DNA from: a virus
Taxonomy: Duplodnaviria; Caudoviricetes
DNA: 64,000 nucleotides
IMG/VR virus record: IMGVR_UViG_3300008266_000277
Location: 826 to 64,825 of that record
Direction: 5' to 3' (one strand)
How positions within the stretch are numbered: the first letter of the stretch is position 1; every line of letters begins with the position of its first letter. A model generated the notes under the pieces. It had not been told where the DNA came from and searched no databases. It saw only the letters and a list, made by a program, of their open reading frames with translations. Made by a program: the position numbers and the translations under genes. Shown here one piece after another: positions 14,158 to 37,771 of this stretch.

Positions 14158-17100
14158 TTATCTTCTTGCCATAGCTTGTGCATTGTAGAACTTCTGGATT
14201 GCCATTGCAGGATCTAAAGTTGATCCAGTGAATCCAACAAGTTTAGCCAGTTTAGCTAATAACTTACTACCTCCTTTTTGCTGAAAGAAGTAAGGACCTG
14301 TATCACGTGTATAGTATGCTTTGTCATCACCTTTCATGATGTGAATCATATCATCAAGGATCTCACGATATGTATCTGTAGTAGGACCAAAAGCAATAGA
14401 CTTAAGATCTAACAAGTCAAAGTAGTTATACAAACCACCACCTACATAAGGAGTAGCAGAAGGTAAAGGCAAGAACTGTTCGTTCTCTGCACGTACCTGC
14501 ATTAGTAGATTAATAAGATGTGTCTCAGCAAATCCTACTGTATTGAATGGTCTGTTAGCATCTCCTTCTACACCAAAAAAGTCTAGAGGTCCTGACAAAG
14601 CTCTAAGCTTATCATATCTTTCATCATCATCAGGATCCCAACCAAATATCATAGCTAGTGCAATACTTATAACTGCCAGACCCACAACCTCAGCAAGTAC
14701 ACGCATAGCTGCTTGCTTCTCTTCAGCTGTTGCATATTTAAGTGCAAAGTCTGCATTCTGTACAGTTTGCTTTAGCATTTGTAATGTACGTATGTAGTAA
14801 CCCATATCAGGCTCACCTAGGCCAGGATTTAATCTTGCTCGTGGCGACAACAAAGGTCCTTTGAAGCCCCAGCGTTTAATAGCCATAGTAGTAAAGTATC
14901 TACGCAAATAACTCATAAATCTAAAGAGTAGATATCTCTGTGCTTCTGGTTGATCATACTCTGCATAAGCACCGTTGAGTGAGTTAATAACCTGCTGCAT
15001 TTTATTCTTAAAATGGTTGAACTCTTTGCCTAGCTTTATGTTTCCTTCAGCATCATATGTGAATCCATACTTAGGATCAATACCAGATTTTAATCTGATT
15101 TTCTTATTCTCATCAAGTTCAAATGCTTCTATGTAAGGTATCGTTTCTACCTTACCATCTTCCGTTGTACGCTCAATCATCTTATGATGCATCATACCAC
15201 CAAATTGCTGAAGAGTAGCTTGAAGTTCTAACCATTTACGTGTACTGTATAACCAAGAACCTTCAACAACATCTTTAGTAAAAGTACGAGACATAGTATT
15301 ATTTCTAAGCTTTTCTTCAAATCTACCCTGAGAAGGATCAAAGATTTCAATGATCTGTTGCGTTAATGATTTAGGCCCTTTAGTATAAAGGTTACCTCCA
15401 AAGCTTAGATCACCCATGGCCATAGTAGCCCAAACTTCGCCTTTAGCAGCAGTAATAGGATTTAAATACTTATTTGCTGTAGATTCAATCATTGTCTGAT
15501 ATTTAGCAGACCACTGGTTTTTAAGTGCAGAAGGAACGTTAAGCGCAAAAAACTGAAACGATGCTCTACTAAATAATGCACTTGACAAGTTATTCACAAA
15601 TGCAGATTCAGAAAAGGCACCTTTCATATTAATACCTTCAAACTCACGCTCAAGAAAGTTATTGACATTATCAGCTCTTACACTAGTACCTTTCTTTTTA
15701 CGATAGCTAATAATATGTCTATGGATGAAATTTTTCTTGTTAATCTTTGTAAGATCTACAGTATTGTTAGGGTCATTAACTACTTTCTGTATAGCACGAG
15801 CAACAGGAGATATCTTAATAAGTTGCTTTTGACGCTCTGCTGAATACATGTATCTCATCATTGATGTAATGATGTCTGTAGATACATCTTCATATTCAAT
15901 GTTATATAATCCAGAGATAGGAATGTTACTTTGCTCATCATCAAATAGGTCAAGCTTAGCCATTGTGACTAAGTTATTCTCCCACTTATTGTTAAATCCT
16001 TGCTCTGCCTGATCTGTTGAGCCATAGAACCATTCTCTTATACGCTTAATCCACTGCTGCAGACCATTCCATCTAGCTCTGCCTACTTCATCAACCTTAG
16101 TACTTTGAAGAGTTTCAAGACCTAATCCTAAGAATGCTCCTTTAGGTTTAGTAAATCGAGGAAAATCCAGATACAGCTTTGACTTATTATCTAGGCCATT
16201 CTGATTACGTAAATGATGCTCTGTAAGTTTTTCAAGAACTGTAAATAATTTAGGATCTTTCTCTTTAAGATCAAAGTATTCTTTATTGATATACTTATCC
16301 CATCCATCTTGTGACTGATCAAGATCTTCAGCTGACTTAGGTAAGAAATTACCTTTGTTATCAACTGTCTTACCTACAATCTTAGCTGTCTTATACTCTT
16401 CTTTTACTTCCTGACGATAGAATTTCATAGCTGGTAGACCAGCAATCTTTTCAATAACTCTACCTGACTTATCTTTTATTTCTGTTTGCTCATAGTCATT
16501 AGGATCTGTAGGTCTTATAACTGACCATACAGATACTCGTTTATATTTTGTACCAGTAGCAGTTTCTACGGTAATGTGGTTAGCATCAAACCATTTTGCA
16601 AAATCAGAATTCTGACGCTTCAGTTCATCTATAACATCTTTATCTAGTAAGAATCTATTAGCAGATTGTGCTGTAATAGCACGTGATCCTAATGAATCAT
16701 TAAGCTTATCTGTATCCATAAGCTGCAGATAATTGTTGACAACATCAACATAATAATCTGTAGCATCTGTTTCAGACATCTGCTCTAATTCATAATATAA
16801 ACCATCAAGCTCAGCCTTAAGAAAATTATCTAATCTATTCTTGCTTTTCTTAGCATATAGTTCATTTAACCTATCCTGTTCTTTTTTACTTAATGCTCTT
16901 GTTTCACGTATCTTATATAGTTCATTAAGTTCAGCCTGTTCTTCAACTAATACGCCAGATCTATATTTTGCTTTTCTGGCATCAATCTCTTGCTCTAAAG
17001 CTCTAATCTTATCAATAGCTTCTTTAGTCATTAGAGATGGATCAGGTTGCCCATCCTCATCTCTAAATCCTGACTTAAGATCAATAATAGCTTCTTGTAA

Positions 17101-35900: not shown

Positions 35901-37771
35901 ATTTCTTGTATATCATCTCCTGATACTGTCTTAAGTAGTTCTTCATCACTTAGATTCTGCAGATCTTGATATCTCTGTAGGAAAGTATCTTCCATACCAG
36001 TTTCAAGCACTGTCCAAAATTGTTCAGCTTGAGAGCTCCATTTAGCATCTTGAAAACCTTTTGCATCACCAGCTTTTTCAGCTTCAGACATTTCTTTGCT
36101 AAGCTGTTCTTGATTTACCATGTTATTAACATGGAGATTGTTATACTTAAGAGGATCTTTATAAATCTCATCTAGAATAGCAGCTTTACGTCTACCTTCT
36201 TTAAGTGCCTCATCGCGCTCGTTTGTATAATTCTTATTGAATACCCTGCCAACACGTTCCTTAGCACCAATAGCTACATTAGATGCGCCAGATACAATGC
36301 CTCCCATAAAGAAACCTGATGCAAATATTTCAAGACCTTCTGGGCTAAACTGTTTGGCAATATTATCAGCTATTGCATCATAGTAACCACCTCTTGTCTT
36401 ATTATTATAGAGATTGCTGTAGTACTGTTTATTTGTACCAGATATAACTTCCTGCGCAGATTCCTGAAGACCTTCTGCTAAGTTTGCAGATATATAGTTA
36501 ATACCAAAAGTACCATATGTTCTAGGTTTAATTAAAGCCTTTGCCGCATTCTTAAAATTCTTTTCTACTACTTGTATACCTTCTTTAGTAATTAATGTCT
36601 TATAGAACTTGCTTTCATCTATAGGCATTAACTTTCTAAGCGGGCTGAATGATCTAGTATAGTTACCTAAAACAATCTGATTAGAAAAGAAGATAACAGG
36701 TAAGTTGGTCCATGTAGTAGACAAAGCAGCAGATTTTGCCATCTTTTTTATTTCAGCGGCTTCTTCATCATTAGGAGCTCTACCATTTTTACGCATAAAG
36801 TCATCGTAACCATCACGTAACATTTCATTTTCTACCATACCTCCTTCAAGAGCTGACTCACCAAATGCTAATCTAACGTTACGTATGTCTCTATAGAAGG
36901 ATCCAAAACCTTGTACAGTTTTAGCAACTCCACCTAAGTTTTCTAACTTATCAAAATTAGATAGGAAATTATAAGTTTCACCCAATGTATTGCGAGCAAT
37001 AAACTTACCTGTTGCTTGTGCACCAGATGCCATAGCATTATACACAGTGCGCGCAGTACTTACATCATGTAGTTTATCAAGAGCATTAAGAATTTTATTT
37101 GTTTTCTTAGTCCATTCTGCTGCAGTAAATAAAGCTTTAGTAGCTCTAGCAATATTTACACCAGTACGCGCAAGTGCTGCTTCACCAGCTGCTCCACCTG
37201 TAAGAAATGTTGCTCCAAATAATACAACTTCTTCAGCTAAGATCTCTGCCATTATACCAAAGGTATAACCAGAGTTAAGGAATAAATTATTTGTAAATCC
37301 TCCTACACCACCTCTTGATGAAGTACCAATAGCCATGGCTTTTTCCATGTTCTTAGCAGCTTCTCTATCTGACTCAGGACCAAAGCCAGCAGCATCTCCA
37401 GCAGCATTCCATACCATTGTCTTCCACTGACCCCATGTTCTTCTAAAGTCATCAGTAAAAGAGCTAGCAGCATTATAACGGGCCTCATTATCTAAATAAG
37501 GATTGAATCCAAGCTTAGAAAAATTAGGATGATTGTAGTATCTTTCAAACTGATGGTGATCTATATCTGCACCAAACGTTTTAAGCTTAGCTTCATTAAA
37601 TACACTGCGAGCATTAAGTTTAGCCTCAGCATCAACATTATCCCATATGTCATCAAAGGACATACTCTTTGCTTGCTCTTTATTAAGAGGAGGATTTAAT
37701 GGATTTGTAGGACCTGACTTTACCCCAAAAATCTCATTTATATCAAGTGGAGGACGATTAGTTTCAGCCAT
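32999..37771 (-). CDS. Giant virion ejection protein (1590 aa) with Gly/Ala-rich hydrophobic segments and a degenerate zincin
   Basis: VVLFGATFLTGGAAGEAALA, EGLQESAQE, IFASGFFMGGIVSG; ILREEVN at the HExxH position; precedes the RNAP gene. Confidence 0.7.
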   Translation of the reverse strand: MAETNRPPLDINEIFGVKSGPTNPLNPPLNKEQAKSMSFDDIWDNVDAEAKLNARSVFNEAKLKTFGADIDHHQFERYYNHPNFSKLGFNPYLDNEARYNAASSFTDDFRRTWGQWKTMVWNAAGDAAGFGPESDREAAKNMEKAMAIGTSSRGGVGGFTNNLFLNSGYTFGIMAEILAEEVVLFGATFLTGGAAGEAALARTGVNIARATKALFTAAEWTKKTNKILNALDKLHDVSTARTVYNAMASGAQATGKFIARNTLGETYNFLSNFDKLENLGGVAKTVQGFGSFYRDIRNVRLAFGESALEGGMVENEMLRDGYDDFMRKNGRAPNDEEAAEIKKMAKSAALSTTWTNLPVIFFSNQIVLGNYTRSFSPLRKLMPIDESKFYKTLITKEGIQVVEKNFKNAAKALIKPRTYGTFGINYISANLAEGLQESAQEVISGTNKQYYSNLYNNKTRGGYYDAIADNIAKQFSPEGLEIFASGFFMGGIVSGASNVAIGAKERVGRVFNKNYTNERDEALKEGRRKAAILDEIYKDPLKYNNLHVNNMVNQEQLSKEMSEAEKAGDAKGFQDAKWSSQAEQFWTVLETGMEDTFLQRYQDLQNLSDEELLKTVSGDDIQEIRKSLSEMSSKVKEFKQTYDFVKKELANPFKPWNFKKGTPEEIEESNAYVAFRDAQKDLIFMKESFKNTAKRMKSIVSEAVSDARIPGAAASDITNLFGLPTMISEIIQLRQELKILNDVESVTPDTKDLKSDQSPKFRNDAERLKTEKESKLKNLEAFVDAMQDVVVEVNKNAKDGKAPAGEKIIQTKENKITASVYDKAYKAYSAYMKGIAKGPVFDTDLSNSFNKLLDHYLLDSENIALANSVNALVNPTSFYEYSRRKKEVMTAEHANRKERIQQALDSYQKIKDQNKLLQELYKRNIFFDASEWEALNTEGKMPKRLYRVTGKDQILTTSTLYNDAVELLKEYSINVNNIPLQYNTELEQYDSEVRDKLPGDNRSYEDIAEQFGFDPKASKTTLPLRDVLQVIIDSDFATEQEQALARRLIMLAKADETVTFSKELAGPGIYTETEQTVIDARYSSEEYAKNVQSYPIETSILREEVNRRVYDMLRNDAPFQNSVREIFNAANEYYREGRMQGFYDKKMLGLRAMDDFVKEALTNEYFRDFLHEVRFESTGRSAWGEFISKIVDDLSVTVGDFSDTALNAVINVVTTKIDSNYSKAQAQASGRTVTEEEVVNPRELSIEEIELRHPGLVDELIKLYQDYNAIFAEIGDTAKMLDPDYASKTPEEIKNSPQFREYVRTNVSENLRNAFDKYFRKEAEVRTINRRPGIKQTITETDQTQLFIEERNKLMALGYTEDEINDMTVLEGLNIINQGETKAETAERLERERNELAEDREAARQEVRDQINDIEDINEWKAVEAELIAKLSQNAEFRTRTGFKAEELTELLNNKRQELAFKTEYDDINVGDTVIIMNLEKGIQGTYEVYAKDKKAISLRNSKGSEYTLKRRTFKTDNAKRYVFKYSKEMNEDDLMVNPISPEEQTISNDDVRAIQSVSDEDITNAINRGKKKDADSAKNDFLDSLDDIC

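Follow-up and report, generated by a model that had tools for sequence, protein, structure and literature searches.

Relatives of the three proteins considered here are known from the virions of two crAss-like phages, crAss001 and phi14:2, where they were identified by mass spectrometry (Bayfield 2023, PMC10172136; Drobysheva preprint, 10.1101/2020.03.07.982082). In both works, the order of ejection is ascribed to packing and to mutual interactions of the proteins. The crAss001 maps leave the cargo unresolved, and the disulfides that these virions contain are located in the tail and in gp57 (PMC10172136). For RNA-polymerase polyproteins that exist as a fused chain the preprint suggests proteolytic cleavage, and it terms phi14:2 gp65 a zincin-like protease. 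In the texts searched, the word 'cysteine' has no match for either work, and terminal cysteines go unmentioned. Precedents come from other phages. In the cryo-EM virion structure of cyanopodophage A4 (Anabaena phage A-4L), a disulfide joins Cys1715 of gp27 to Cys5 of gp26, with the C-terminal helix of gp27 sitting in a cleft of gp26 (PNAS 2025, PMC12002296); the accessible sections of that report present the bond as a stabilizing detail of a pentameric ring rather than as a conserved rule, and give no comparative evidence from gene fission or fusion. In the Schitoviridae, the accessible part of another report describes the suppression of cysteine in ejection proteins and explains it by passage through the envelope (Lokareddy 2024, PMC11445570). 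The initial annotation of the present locus knew of no description of terminal linkage; this holds for the texts on crAss001 and phi14:2, but both a terminal disulfide and cysteine suppression are published.

The window, a stretch of 64,000 nucleotides from a virus of the Caudoviricetes (IMG/VR record IMGVR_UViG_3300008266_000277), carries three genes, A, B and C, which are the RNA-polymerase cargo of a freshwater crAss-like podophage, with the RNA polymerase in the middle member (Table 1). Their approximately 7,850 residues contain exactly four cysteines in the reading path, all of them terminal and facing one another, and the four TGT codons lie on the minus strand where the initial annotation had placed them. 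Its dismissal of all other cysteines of the ORF track, as out of frame or belonging to a mis-start, was also right. A longer ORF for C, from ATG 19836 (MFCVMSVC), was rejected as a mis-start: among the matches listed, the 19 closest full-length homologues (P0163-P0180 and P0182, the fragment P0181 being left out) begin M-x(1-3)-C-P-N. Cysteine accounts for 0.05-0.18% of residues in the trio, whereas the replication genes on the plus strand of the window have 0.3-1.6%. We consider it likely, with a probability of about 0.7, that disulfides join A, B and C head to tail into a chain of about 8,000 residues.

Table 1. Features of the A-B-C cargo module, in window coordinates.
Feature	Position	Strand	Remarks
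Gene A, 1590 aa, first chain member	32999..37771	-	1 Cys only, last residue
Cys1590 of A, TGT codon (..LDDIC*)	33002..33004	-	last residue
Gene B, virion RNA polymerase polyprotein, six frame pieces in this assembly	19824..32977	-	
Cys3 of B, TGT codon (MIC...)	32969..32971	-	C3 column invariant, 28 aligned B proteins
First frame change of B	30943..30944		joint in contigs of all three runs
Assembly gap, second frame change	30527..30527		34 extra letters, contigs of runs X3 and X10
Third frame change	30224..30225		run X3 contigs unlike window on either side
NADAR domain, variable part of B, approximate limits	29850..30224	-	Pfam PF08719, E 3.1e-9
HEAFH, zincin-like HExxH motif in B	29385..29399	-	H1152/E1153/H1156 invariant, alignment A1
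Assembly gap, fourth frame change	28034..28035		about 144 own letters in one run X10 contig
Assembly gap, in frame, no ORF break visible	26467..26468		75 extra letters, contigs of three other runs
DYDID, catalytic DxDxD motif of crAss-type RNA polymerase, in B	24377..24391	-	D2840/D2842/D2844 invariant, alignment A1
Assembly gap, last frame change	21492..21493		133 extra letters, contigs of three other runs
Third-last residue of B, Cys, TGT codon (..NKCFV*)	19833..19835	-	C4373 (reference) invariant, 28 aligned B proteins
Gene C, 1888 aa from ATG 19824, last chain member	14158..19824	-	single Cys, C end without Cys
Cys4 of C, TGT codon (MSVCPN...)	19813..19815	-	C4 invariant, 31 aligned C proteins
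HEFAH, zincin-like HExxH motif in C	19333..19347	-	H160/E161/H164 invariant, alignment A2

Six stop-to-stop pieces, separated by alternating frame changes, make up gene B and hold seven cysteines in total. It had been presented as a rejoined polyprotein, and on the joined path the only cysteines are indeed residue 3 and the third-last residue; the rejoining itself, however, reflects an assembly with missing letters. In relatives, B is a single ORF of 3,000-6,400 residues, the closest intact one having 4571, and the junctions of the reading path were fixed by homology to that protein and with the help of contigs from other runs. At the break sites, extra letters are present in contigs of three such runs, and each of the five frame breaks is an assembly gap here. 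Against the intact relative, B is short of about 21 residues at the first frame change and of about 48 at the fourth; at the last, about 47 residues of the relative have no counterpart, of which, when viewed at the junction, about 44 are not encoded. The five additional cysteine codons (30954-56, 28032-34, 21473-75, 21531-33 and 21504-06) fall beyond the junction points and are therefore off the reading path. The NADAR match covers residues 3-124 of the piece at 28023-30224.

The same module is present in crAss001 (gp47, gp50, gp49) and in phi14:2 (g067, g066, g065). C is the counterpart of gp49 and g065, A corresponds to gp47 and g067, to judge by its cysteine pattern and position, and B has the DxDxD core in common with gp50. 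By tblastn, residues 687-1229 of B matched gp50, a 'putative RNA polymerase', with an E value of 1e-10 and only about 22% identity over 543 residues; neither A nor C had a tblastn match in the phage collection. The cysteines are distributed as in the window: in phi14:2, g067 has one at its last residue only, g066 at 3 and -2 only (negative numbers count from the C-terminus), and g065 at 3 only, while in crAss001 gp47 has one at -3 only, gp50 at 5 and -9 with one more inside, and gp49 at 5 only. The same rule was found in DAC15, crAssphage, crAss002, four Suoliviridae and Fpv1. In Intestiviridae and in some Suoliviridae, 6-12 internal cysteines are tolerated.

The pattern that had been observed in a single genome holds across the order, where the terminal cysteines are conserved and internal ones almost absent (24 in 525,199 residues). 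In the homologue sets, whose raw counts, like those of the junctions below, overstate independence since the sequences are kin, all 41 A proteins have a single C-terminal cysteine and none an N-terminal one, with one internal cysteine in 69,718 residues. Among 120 homologues of B, the C-terminal cysteine is present in 119 (P0110 lacks it) and the N-terminal one in 106, with 33 internal cysteines in 437,048 residues; 13 without the N-terminal residue appear, from their protein sequences, to be truncated or differently started. For C the figures are 116 of 120 at the N-terminus, a single case at the C-terminus (the fragment P0181) and 12 internal in 249,954 residues, two exceptions (P0229 and P0255) having a different N-terminal extension of about 500 residues and no terminal cysteine. 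A 54%-identical relative (L001) has the identical arrangement of cysteines, its B being intact at 4376 residues.

Across 75 related loci, both facing cysteines are found at every one of the 130 places where one giant ORF of the module ends and the next begins (59 A|B, 69 B|C and two extra splits), and at none of the 47 junctions outside the module in the same survey. Fission and fusion of genes go with gain and loss of the pair, which is missing from A-B fusions. The two extra splits (L019 and L029), independent events in different clades, each gained a cysteine pair, and fused proteins of 4665 (L074), 4777 (L077) and 4470 residues (P0117) have neither an N-terminal nor an internal cysteine, the fused Fpv1 gp33 (4401 residues) having just one, at -2. 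On a tree of the RNA-polymerase core, built with FastTree only and carrying a long-branch warning for L074, the fused state requires at least 3-4 changes. Terminal cysteines number 2, 4 or 6, tracking the number of proteins, which fits pairwise links and does not fit one shared metal site. Most junctions are tight or overlapping, as would suit a nucleotide-level signal coupling stop to start and incidentally encoding cysteine, but this explanation is refuted here, together with chance and annotation artefact. The A-type gene of crAss001 and DAC15, though encoded on the opposite strand, still has its C-terminal cysteine; the pair persists at seven junctions with gaps of 354-1837 nt and at identities from 100% down to about 22%; both codons are used (TGT 228, TGC 32), and the distance to the end varies, the C-terminal cysteine ending its protein at 36 of the 130 junctions and the N-terminal one standing at residue 3-6. 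The signal is thus one of proteins, independent of gene adjacency. Chance is further excluded by the low cysteine frequency relative to replication genes, combined with the recurrence of terminal positions across homologues.

Of the linkage in gene order that was first proposed, the pairwise head-to-tail rule, with a pair at every gene break and none in fusions, is thereby strongly favoured at the level of sequence, and a metal bridge or a non-covalent contact remain as rivals to its chemistry. It is improbable that the terminal cysteines act unpaired and in separate roles, be it binding to portal, capsid interior or cargo, serving as a 'cysteine switch' ligand for the zincin domains of B and C, or sensing redox state after ejection. 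To be sure, invariant HExxH motifs occur in both B and C, and in the cargo proteins crAssphage gp47 and crAss002 gp30 a C-terminal cysteine stands alone, with no obvious partner; but A keeps its cysteine with no HExxH match in a motif scan, and separate roles would leave unexplained the matched cysteines at every gene break, the cysteine-free outer ends and the loss of both residues in fusions. The fused RNA-polymerase polyproteins (Suoliviridae gp059/gp076, Fpv1 gp33, crAssphage gp44) unite the same domains in a single covalent chain and have, unlike the trio, a peptide bond instead of a cysteine pair at the junction, which reduction cannot open; the fused chain appears to be the state that the cysteine pairs imitate. 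As the pair occupies the exact place of this peptide bond, the cysteines might be chemical handles (N-to-S acyl shift, thioester ligation) or cleavage-site remnants of an ancestral polyprotein. This seems very doubtful: a Pfam search of A, C and the pieces of B found no intein/Hint and no other ligase domain, the N-terminal cysteine is never residue 1, and fused forms have no cysteine at the equivalent junction, which places it outside any conserved cleavage site.

The fission and fusion rule requires pairwise contact only, whatever its chemistry. Facing termini could meet by sharing a pair of metal ligands (Zn or Cu(I), for example, with other ligands or water), or through a small, non-covalent end-to-end interface of packed residues that keeps a split polyprotein's subunits associated. 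Family-specific motifs around the cysteine, M-x-x-C-P-N in C and [DE]-F-M-x-x-C in B, suggest recognition beyond a bare thiol. Virion assembly takes place in the reducing cytoplasm of hosts that are often anaerobes, which counts against disulfide formation; a metal bridge would function there. Such a contact is nonetheless unlikely. In the alignments of B and C, cysteine is the sole invariant residue at each end, so that no second ligand is conserved; where it is the very last residue, little is left to fold; and in proteins purged of cysteine, other residues could fill a hydrophobic packing role. Furthermore, the sole solved analogue, that of A4, is a disulfide according to the accessible part of its report (PMC12002296). 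There, as in the trio, consecutive ejection-protein genes have facing terminal cysteines, from upstream C end to downstream N end, gp27 (1717 residues) having its only cysteine at -3 and gp26 (1114 residues) at residue 5. Unlike the trio, A4 has no RNA polymerase and a single link instead of a chain of two to four proteins, and BLAST detected no homology of gp27 or gp26 with the trio (best E 0.27).

Returning to the disulfide chain, we infer for this lineage an S-S bond, ordered threading and reductive release in the cytoplasm. On this reading the capsid carries A, B and C, which are injected before the DNA or together with it. Like ejected proteins of other phages, they have been purged of cysteine, and each keeps one within 1-10 residues of the end facing its neighbour in the chain. 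Two intermolecular disulfides would most likely form in the oxidised virion, from A-Cys1590 to B-Cys3 and from the third-last residue of B to C-Cys4. The linked trio would then be one linear thread, with side stubs of a few residues only, a functional polyprotein in which S-S bonds replace peptide bonds at two places, and this would fix a 1:1:1 stoichiometry of its members. With the next chain end staying engaged, the unfolded proteins may pass through the narrow tail in succession, and thiol reduction in the host cytoplasm would cut the thread into its parts.

The ejection operon of Schitoviridae (N4 gp50-gp52, DEV gp71-gp73) resembles the trio in that its giant virion RNA polymerase and its ejection proteins are nearly free of cysteine, as given in the accessible part of PMC11445570. 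N4 gp50, gp51 and gp52 have none in 4,294 residues, hence no terminal cysteine; unlike in the trio, the polymerase is a single chain from another fold family, and there are no pairs to link. In the window, cysteine poverty extends beyond the trio, four cargo genes at 37771-50592 having just 0-2 cysteines each, and the tail genes are cysteine-rich.

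The initial annotation had proposed that three giant genes of the window, A, B and C (B being the virion RNA polymerase polyprotein), keep cysteines only at the ends where successive proteins face each other. The four codons it had singled out are indeed all TGT and stand where it had placed them. The only cysteine of A is its last residue, and that of C is residue 4, reading from the ATG at 19824. In B, Cys3 and the third-last residue are the two cysteines found on the reading path; its frame pieces hold seven in all, five of which are off the path since they lie beyond frame changes set by homology and by independent contigs. 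An ATG at 19836 could open a longer ORF for C (MFCVMSVC; window 19824-19836, overlapping the end of B), but its homologues begin with the second Met; the 1892-aa call (identical to homologue P0162) is therefore probably four codons too long.

B comes in six frame pieces in the window, a fragmentation that stems from the assembly and not from the phage itself. The nearest intact homologue among the matches listed, P0009 (4571 aa, 87-95% identity over four of five aligned segments), has ~21, ~48 and ~47 residues without a counterpart in the window, exactly at three frame changes, and these residues are conserved in the consensus of the B family. Logan contigs of three other public sequencing runs, coming from three different studies (X3, X10 and X12), were aligned to the window; none of these runs is marked as a potential origin of the DNA under study. 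Their contigs carry extra letters, as collected in the table, which means that short stretches are missing from the window at every frame change, together with one in-frame stretch; five of the six missing stretches coincide with frame changes of B. Read by eye, the coding strand of the 34 letters absent at 30527 shows no Cys codon, and the only cysteines of P0009 are the two terminal ones. The true length of B is probably ~4,570 aa, that of the chain ~8,050 aa.

Features of the window and stretches missing from its assembly (positions are those of the window)
Feature	Position	Strand	Extra letters in other runs	Remark
Replication genes		plus		helicase, Sak4, primase, DNA polymerase
Run of giant genes		minus
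A	32999-37771	minus
B	19824-32977	minus
C	14158-19824	minus
Muzzle-like protein, 1738 aa	50592-55808			matches phrog_37948, a large 'virion structural protein' PHROG
DYDID in B	24377-24391			catalytic DxDxD (DFDxD-type) motif; three Asp invariant in 28 B proteins
HEAFH in B	29385-29399			zincin-like HExxH; invariant in B family
HEFAH in C	19333-19347			zincin-like HExxH; invariant in C family
NADAR domain (PF08719) in B	~29850-30224			variable part of B
Gap	21492/21493		133	contigs of all three runs
Gap	26467/26468		75	all three runs; in frame
Gap	28034/28035		about 144	one contig
Gap	30224/30225			contig ends diverge from window
Gap	30527		34	two runs
Joint	30943/30944			contigs of all three runs

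The source contig, a 64.8-kb phage fragment, belongs to a distant freshwater crAss-like phage. Residues 687-1229 of the 2208-aa piece of B (21416-28042) match by tblastn, with 22-23% identity and E values of 9e-12 to 1e-10, the 'putative RNA polymerase' of crAss001, of Cellulophaga phages and of their relatives. The gene order is that of crAss-like cargo modules, A-B-C corresponding to g067-g066-g065 (of phage phi14:2), downstream of muzzle and cargo genes; the muzzle-like product also resembles proteins of this type in Cellulophaga and epsilon-crAss phages. The invariant HExxH motifs of B and C indicate that the chain contains two putative metalloprotease domains. PHROGs and Pfam searches with A, B and C returned nothing beyond NADAR and two PHROGs of unknown function. 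According to precomputed Pfam assignments, the NADAR domain is found in many, not all, B homologues, helicase-type domains occupying the same place in others. Neither megablast with B nor tblastn with C found a match in the GenBank phage collection: as judged from sequence, the clade of the window is absent from deposited phages, which only the polymerase core reaches. Near-identical DNA (window 21300-31100, whole or part) is present in contigs of 19 studies dated 2017-2025, mostly labelled as freshwater, lake-water or 'fungus' metagenomes, suggesting a widespread freshwater phage. Relatives of A, B and C have been found in the virions of phi14:2 and crAss001 (PMC10172136; preprint 10.1101/2020.03.07.982082) and, by analogy, those of the window are presumably packaged and injected.

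The terminal cysteines are conserved well beyond the window. In the related locus L001 (54% identity), A has its only cysteine at -2 (counting from the C end), C at residue 4, and B, which is intact there with 4376 aa, at residue 3 and at -4. Homologue sets were drawn from a collection of 5.8 billion proteins. All 41 homologues of A (41/41) have one cysteine within the last 10 residues, with a single other in 69,718 aa. Among the 120 B homologues listed of 271, the C-terminal cysteine is present in 119 and the N-terminal one in 106, with 33 internal cysteines in 437,048 aa; for C (120 listed of 243), the N-terminal cysteine is found in 116, with 12 internal ones in 249,954 aa, and a cysteine in the last 12 residues occurs in one of the 120 listed, the fragment P0181. 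The N-terminal cysteine is missing from 14 listed B homologues and from four listed C homologues. Thirteen of the 14 start inside the reference (first aligned residue 36 to 1189), and the last, P0117, is an A-B fusion. The four comprise two fragments as well as P0229 and P0255, where the first ~70-100 residues, cysteine included, are replaced by an unrelated N-terminal extension of ~450-500 aa; searched as possible pieces of B, these extensions had no match, and the two proteins are exceptions to the rule. When 28 B proteins and 31 C proteins were aligned, the columns of the terminal cysteines were invariant. A 6381-residue B protein (L026, 7386-26528) has cysteines at its two ends only.

Counted across related trios, the pattern put forward in the initial annotation held without exception at gene breaks. 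A scan of 75 loci (L001 and 74 from IMG/VR) considered consecutive plus-strand ORFs of at least 450 aa; junctions were counted over 70 loci together and over five loci that a motif filter had excluded and that were read separately, and the total was confirmed. A cysteine in the last 12 residues of the upstream protein, paired with one in the first 12 of the downstream protein, was found at 130/130 module junctions (59 A|B, 69 B|C and 2 extra splits), none of which (0/130) had a single-sided cysteine. The N-terminal member sits at residue 3-6, the C-terminal one at -1 to -10, and in 118/130 cases at -1 to -4; the codons are TGT (228) or TGC (32). Outside the chain the pair is missing at 34/34 junctions between upstream cargo and A, at 11/11 further upstream and at 2/2 between cargo and an A-B fusion, one outside junction having a lone upstream cysteine. 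The 205 chain proteins contain 24 internal cysteines in 525,199 residues (0.046 per 1000 aa), whereas the other ORFs have about 11 per 1000 aa.

When genes fuse, the pair vanishes. In the A-B fusions of L074, L077, P0117 and Fpv1 gp33 both the N-terminal cysteine and those of the former junction are missing, likewise in the Suoliviridae fusions gp059, gp076, gp53 and gp32, while the pair between the C end of the fusion and the N end of the next protein is kept. Conversely, an additional cut in the module of L019 and of L029 created a new break with a pair of its own. For placing annotated crassviruses, blastp with the polymerase core was unsuccessful and a profile was used instead; it retrieved phi14:2 g066, crAss001 gp50, DAC15 gp076 and three Suoliviridae proteins, and did not reach crAssphage gp44, crAss002 gp33, Fpv1 gp33 and cr7_1 gp32, which are therefore not on the tree. 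On a FastTree phylogeny of this core (82 rows, with a warning of long-branch attraction for L074) the fused state amounts to four changes, at least three of them forced by well-supported branches, and L019 and L029 fall in different clades.

The pair is a protein-level feature. The A-type genes of crAss001 (gp47) and DAC15 (gp078) are on the strand opposite to the B- and C-type genes, yet their products have a lone cysteine at -3, and crAss001 gp50 and DAC15 gp076 still begin with an N-terminal cysteine; at seven pair-bearing junctions the intergenic distance is 354-1837 nt. Phage phi14:2 has the complete pattern (g067, last residue; g066, 3 and -2; g065, 3). A two-protein version exists in crAssphage (locus L005) and crAss002 (L006), where gp45 and gp32, respectively, have a cysteine at -2, and gp44 and gp33 start with M-S-C, provided that translation of crAss002 gp33 begins at Met33 of the annotated product. 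In these two phages a smaller upstream cargo protein (crAssphage gp47, L005 1588-4161; crAss002 gp30, L006 2393-4066) also has a lone cysteine, at -2 and -8, respectively, and the protein that follows has none at its N-terminus; this cysteine may serve homodimerization or binding to another partner.

Cysteine depletion in general is a known habit of ejected proteins. In Schitoviridae, cysteine suppression has been described for the ejection operon and ascribed to passage through the periplasm (PMC11445570). The chain proteins of the window share with ejection proteins of this type a cysteine content far below that of the proteome. They differ in that A, B and C conserve terminal cysteines, whereas we counted none in N4 gp50, gp51 and gp52. 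The new element is the retention of one cysteine at each facing end. We found no description of terminal cysteines in crAss cargo in the literature searched, mainly open-access main texts, and the word 'cysteine' has zero occurrences in the main text of the crAss001 paper (PMC10172136).

Pairs present at each break and absent from fusions, with totals of two, four or six terminal cysteines per chain, are most simply accounted for by a pairwise covalent link that replaces the peptide bond. A single Zn(Cys)4 site gathering all four cysteines is ruled out by the chains having two and six of them. Protein trans-splicing by split inteins would call for halves of a Hint/intein domain at the facing ends and for a cysteine at position 1 of the downstream protein; Pfam detects no family except NADAR in A, C and the pieces of B, and the cysteines stand at -1 to -10 in the upstream protein and at residue 3-6 in the downstream one. 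A precedent for a disulfide comes from the cyanopodophage A4, where gp27 Cys1715 is bonded to gp26 Cys5 in the virion (PMC12002296). In the corresponding Anabaena phage A-4L record, these proteins come from consecutive genes and have their sole cysteines at -3 and at residue 5; the window displays the same arrangement, a sole cysteine near the upstream C end and a sole cysteine near the downstream N end. The resemblance is one of function alone: when A-4L gp25-gp29 were compared by blastp with A and C of the window and A and B of L001, the best E value was 0.27. The A4 structure shows that, within a capsid, a pair of this kind can form a disulfide. We favour a head-to-tail disulfide chain, with a probability of about 0.7, some direct end-to-end tether being very probable indeed. 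Co-folding of the last 280 residues of B with the first 300 of C from L001, run without controls, scored 0.04 against a mark of 0.32, which weighs neither for nor against the link.

A cysteine a few residues from the end would make a near-linear joint with a short stub, suited to a thread in a narrow channel. In crAss001, gp47, gp49 and gp50 are in the virion, inside an unresolved cargo zone of the capsid; this cargo must partly unfold, since it meets constrictions of <50 Å, and its ejection order was proposed to be set by packing and mutual interactions (PMC10172136). From the disulfide chain we infer a threading order, a timing of oxidation and a reductive release. In evolution, each Cys pair would be equivalent to a peptide bond, allowing giant genes to split without loss of covalent continuity; the cargo would exit from the capsid as one unfolded chain, a thread of fixed order with two, three or four links and up to ~1 MDa, which the reducing cytoplasm of the host would then cut into active subunits. 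That Crassvirales and their environmental relatives share such a 'terminal-cysteine code', a redox-gated, self-disassembling, disulfide-stitched polyprotein of RNA-polymerase cargo, seems to us somewhat better than an even bet.

Among human gut phages, crassviruses are the most abundant. The papers on crAss001 and on N4 posed the puzzle of how a megadalton of protein, including an RNA polymerase of several thousand residues, leaves a podovirus capsid in an orderly way through a channel narrower than folded proteins. Terminal thiols at every break offer a concrete and directly testable model, with predictions on which ends connect, on the order and stoichiometry of the chain and on reduction as the means of release. 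Annotators gain a simple rule for recognizing true starts and for telling fission from fusion of giant genes, and the rule explains why these genes split freely.

Other genes of the window deserve a word. In contrast with the cargo block (14158-50592), the tail-side genes (50592-64000) are rich in cysteine (1.5-7.1%), the 602-aa protein encoded at 60405-62213 having 43; such richness agrees with the disulfide-stabilised tail of crAss001, where the tail and gp57 are disulfide-bonded (PMC10172136). Upstream of A, the cargo protein of 1112 aa (37771-41109) has only two cysteines, which make a C-x5-C motif at residues 128 and 134. Missing from the equivalent protein of L012, L013, L019, L020 and L023, this motif is present in that of L011, L018, L057, L072 and L073, and at 127/133 in L022.
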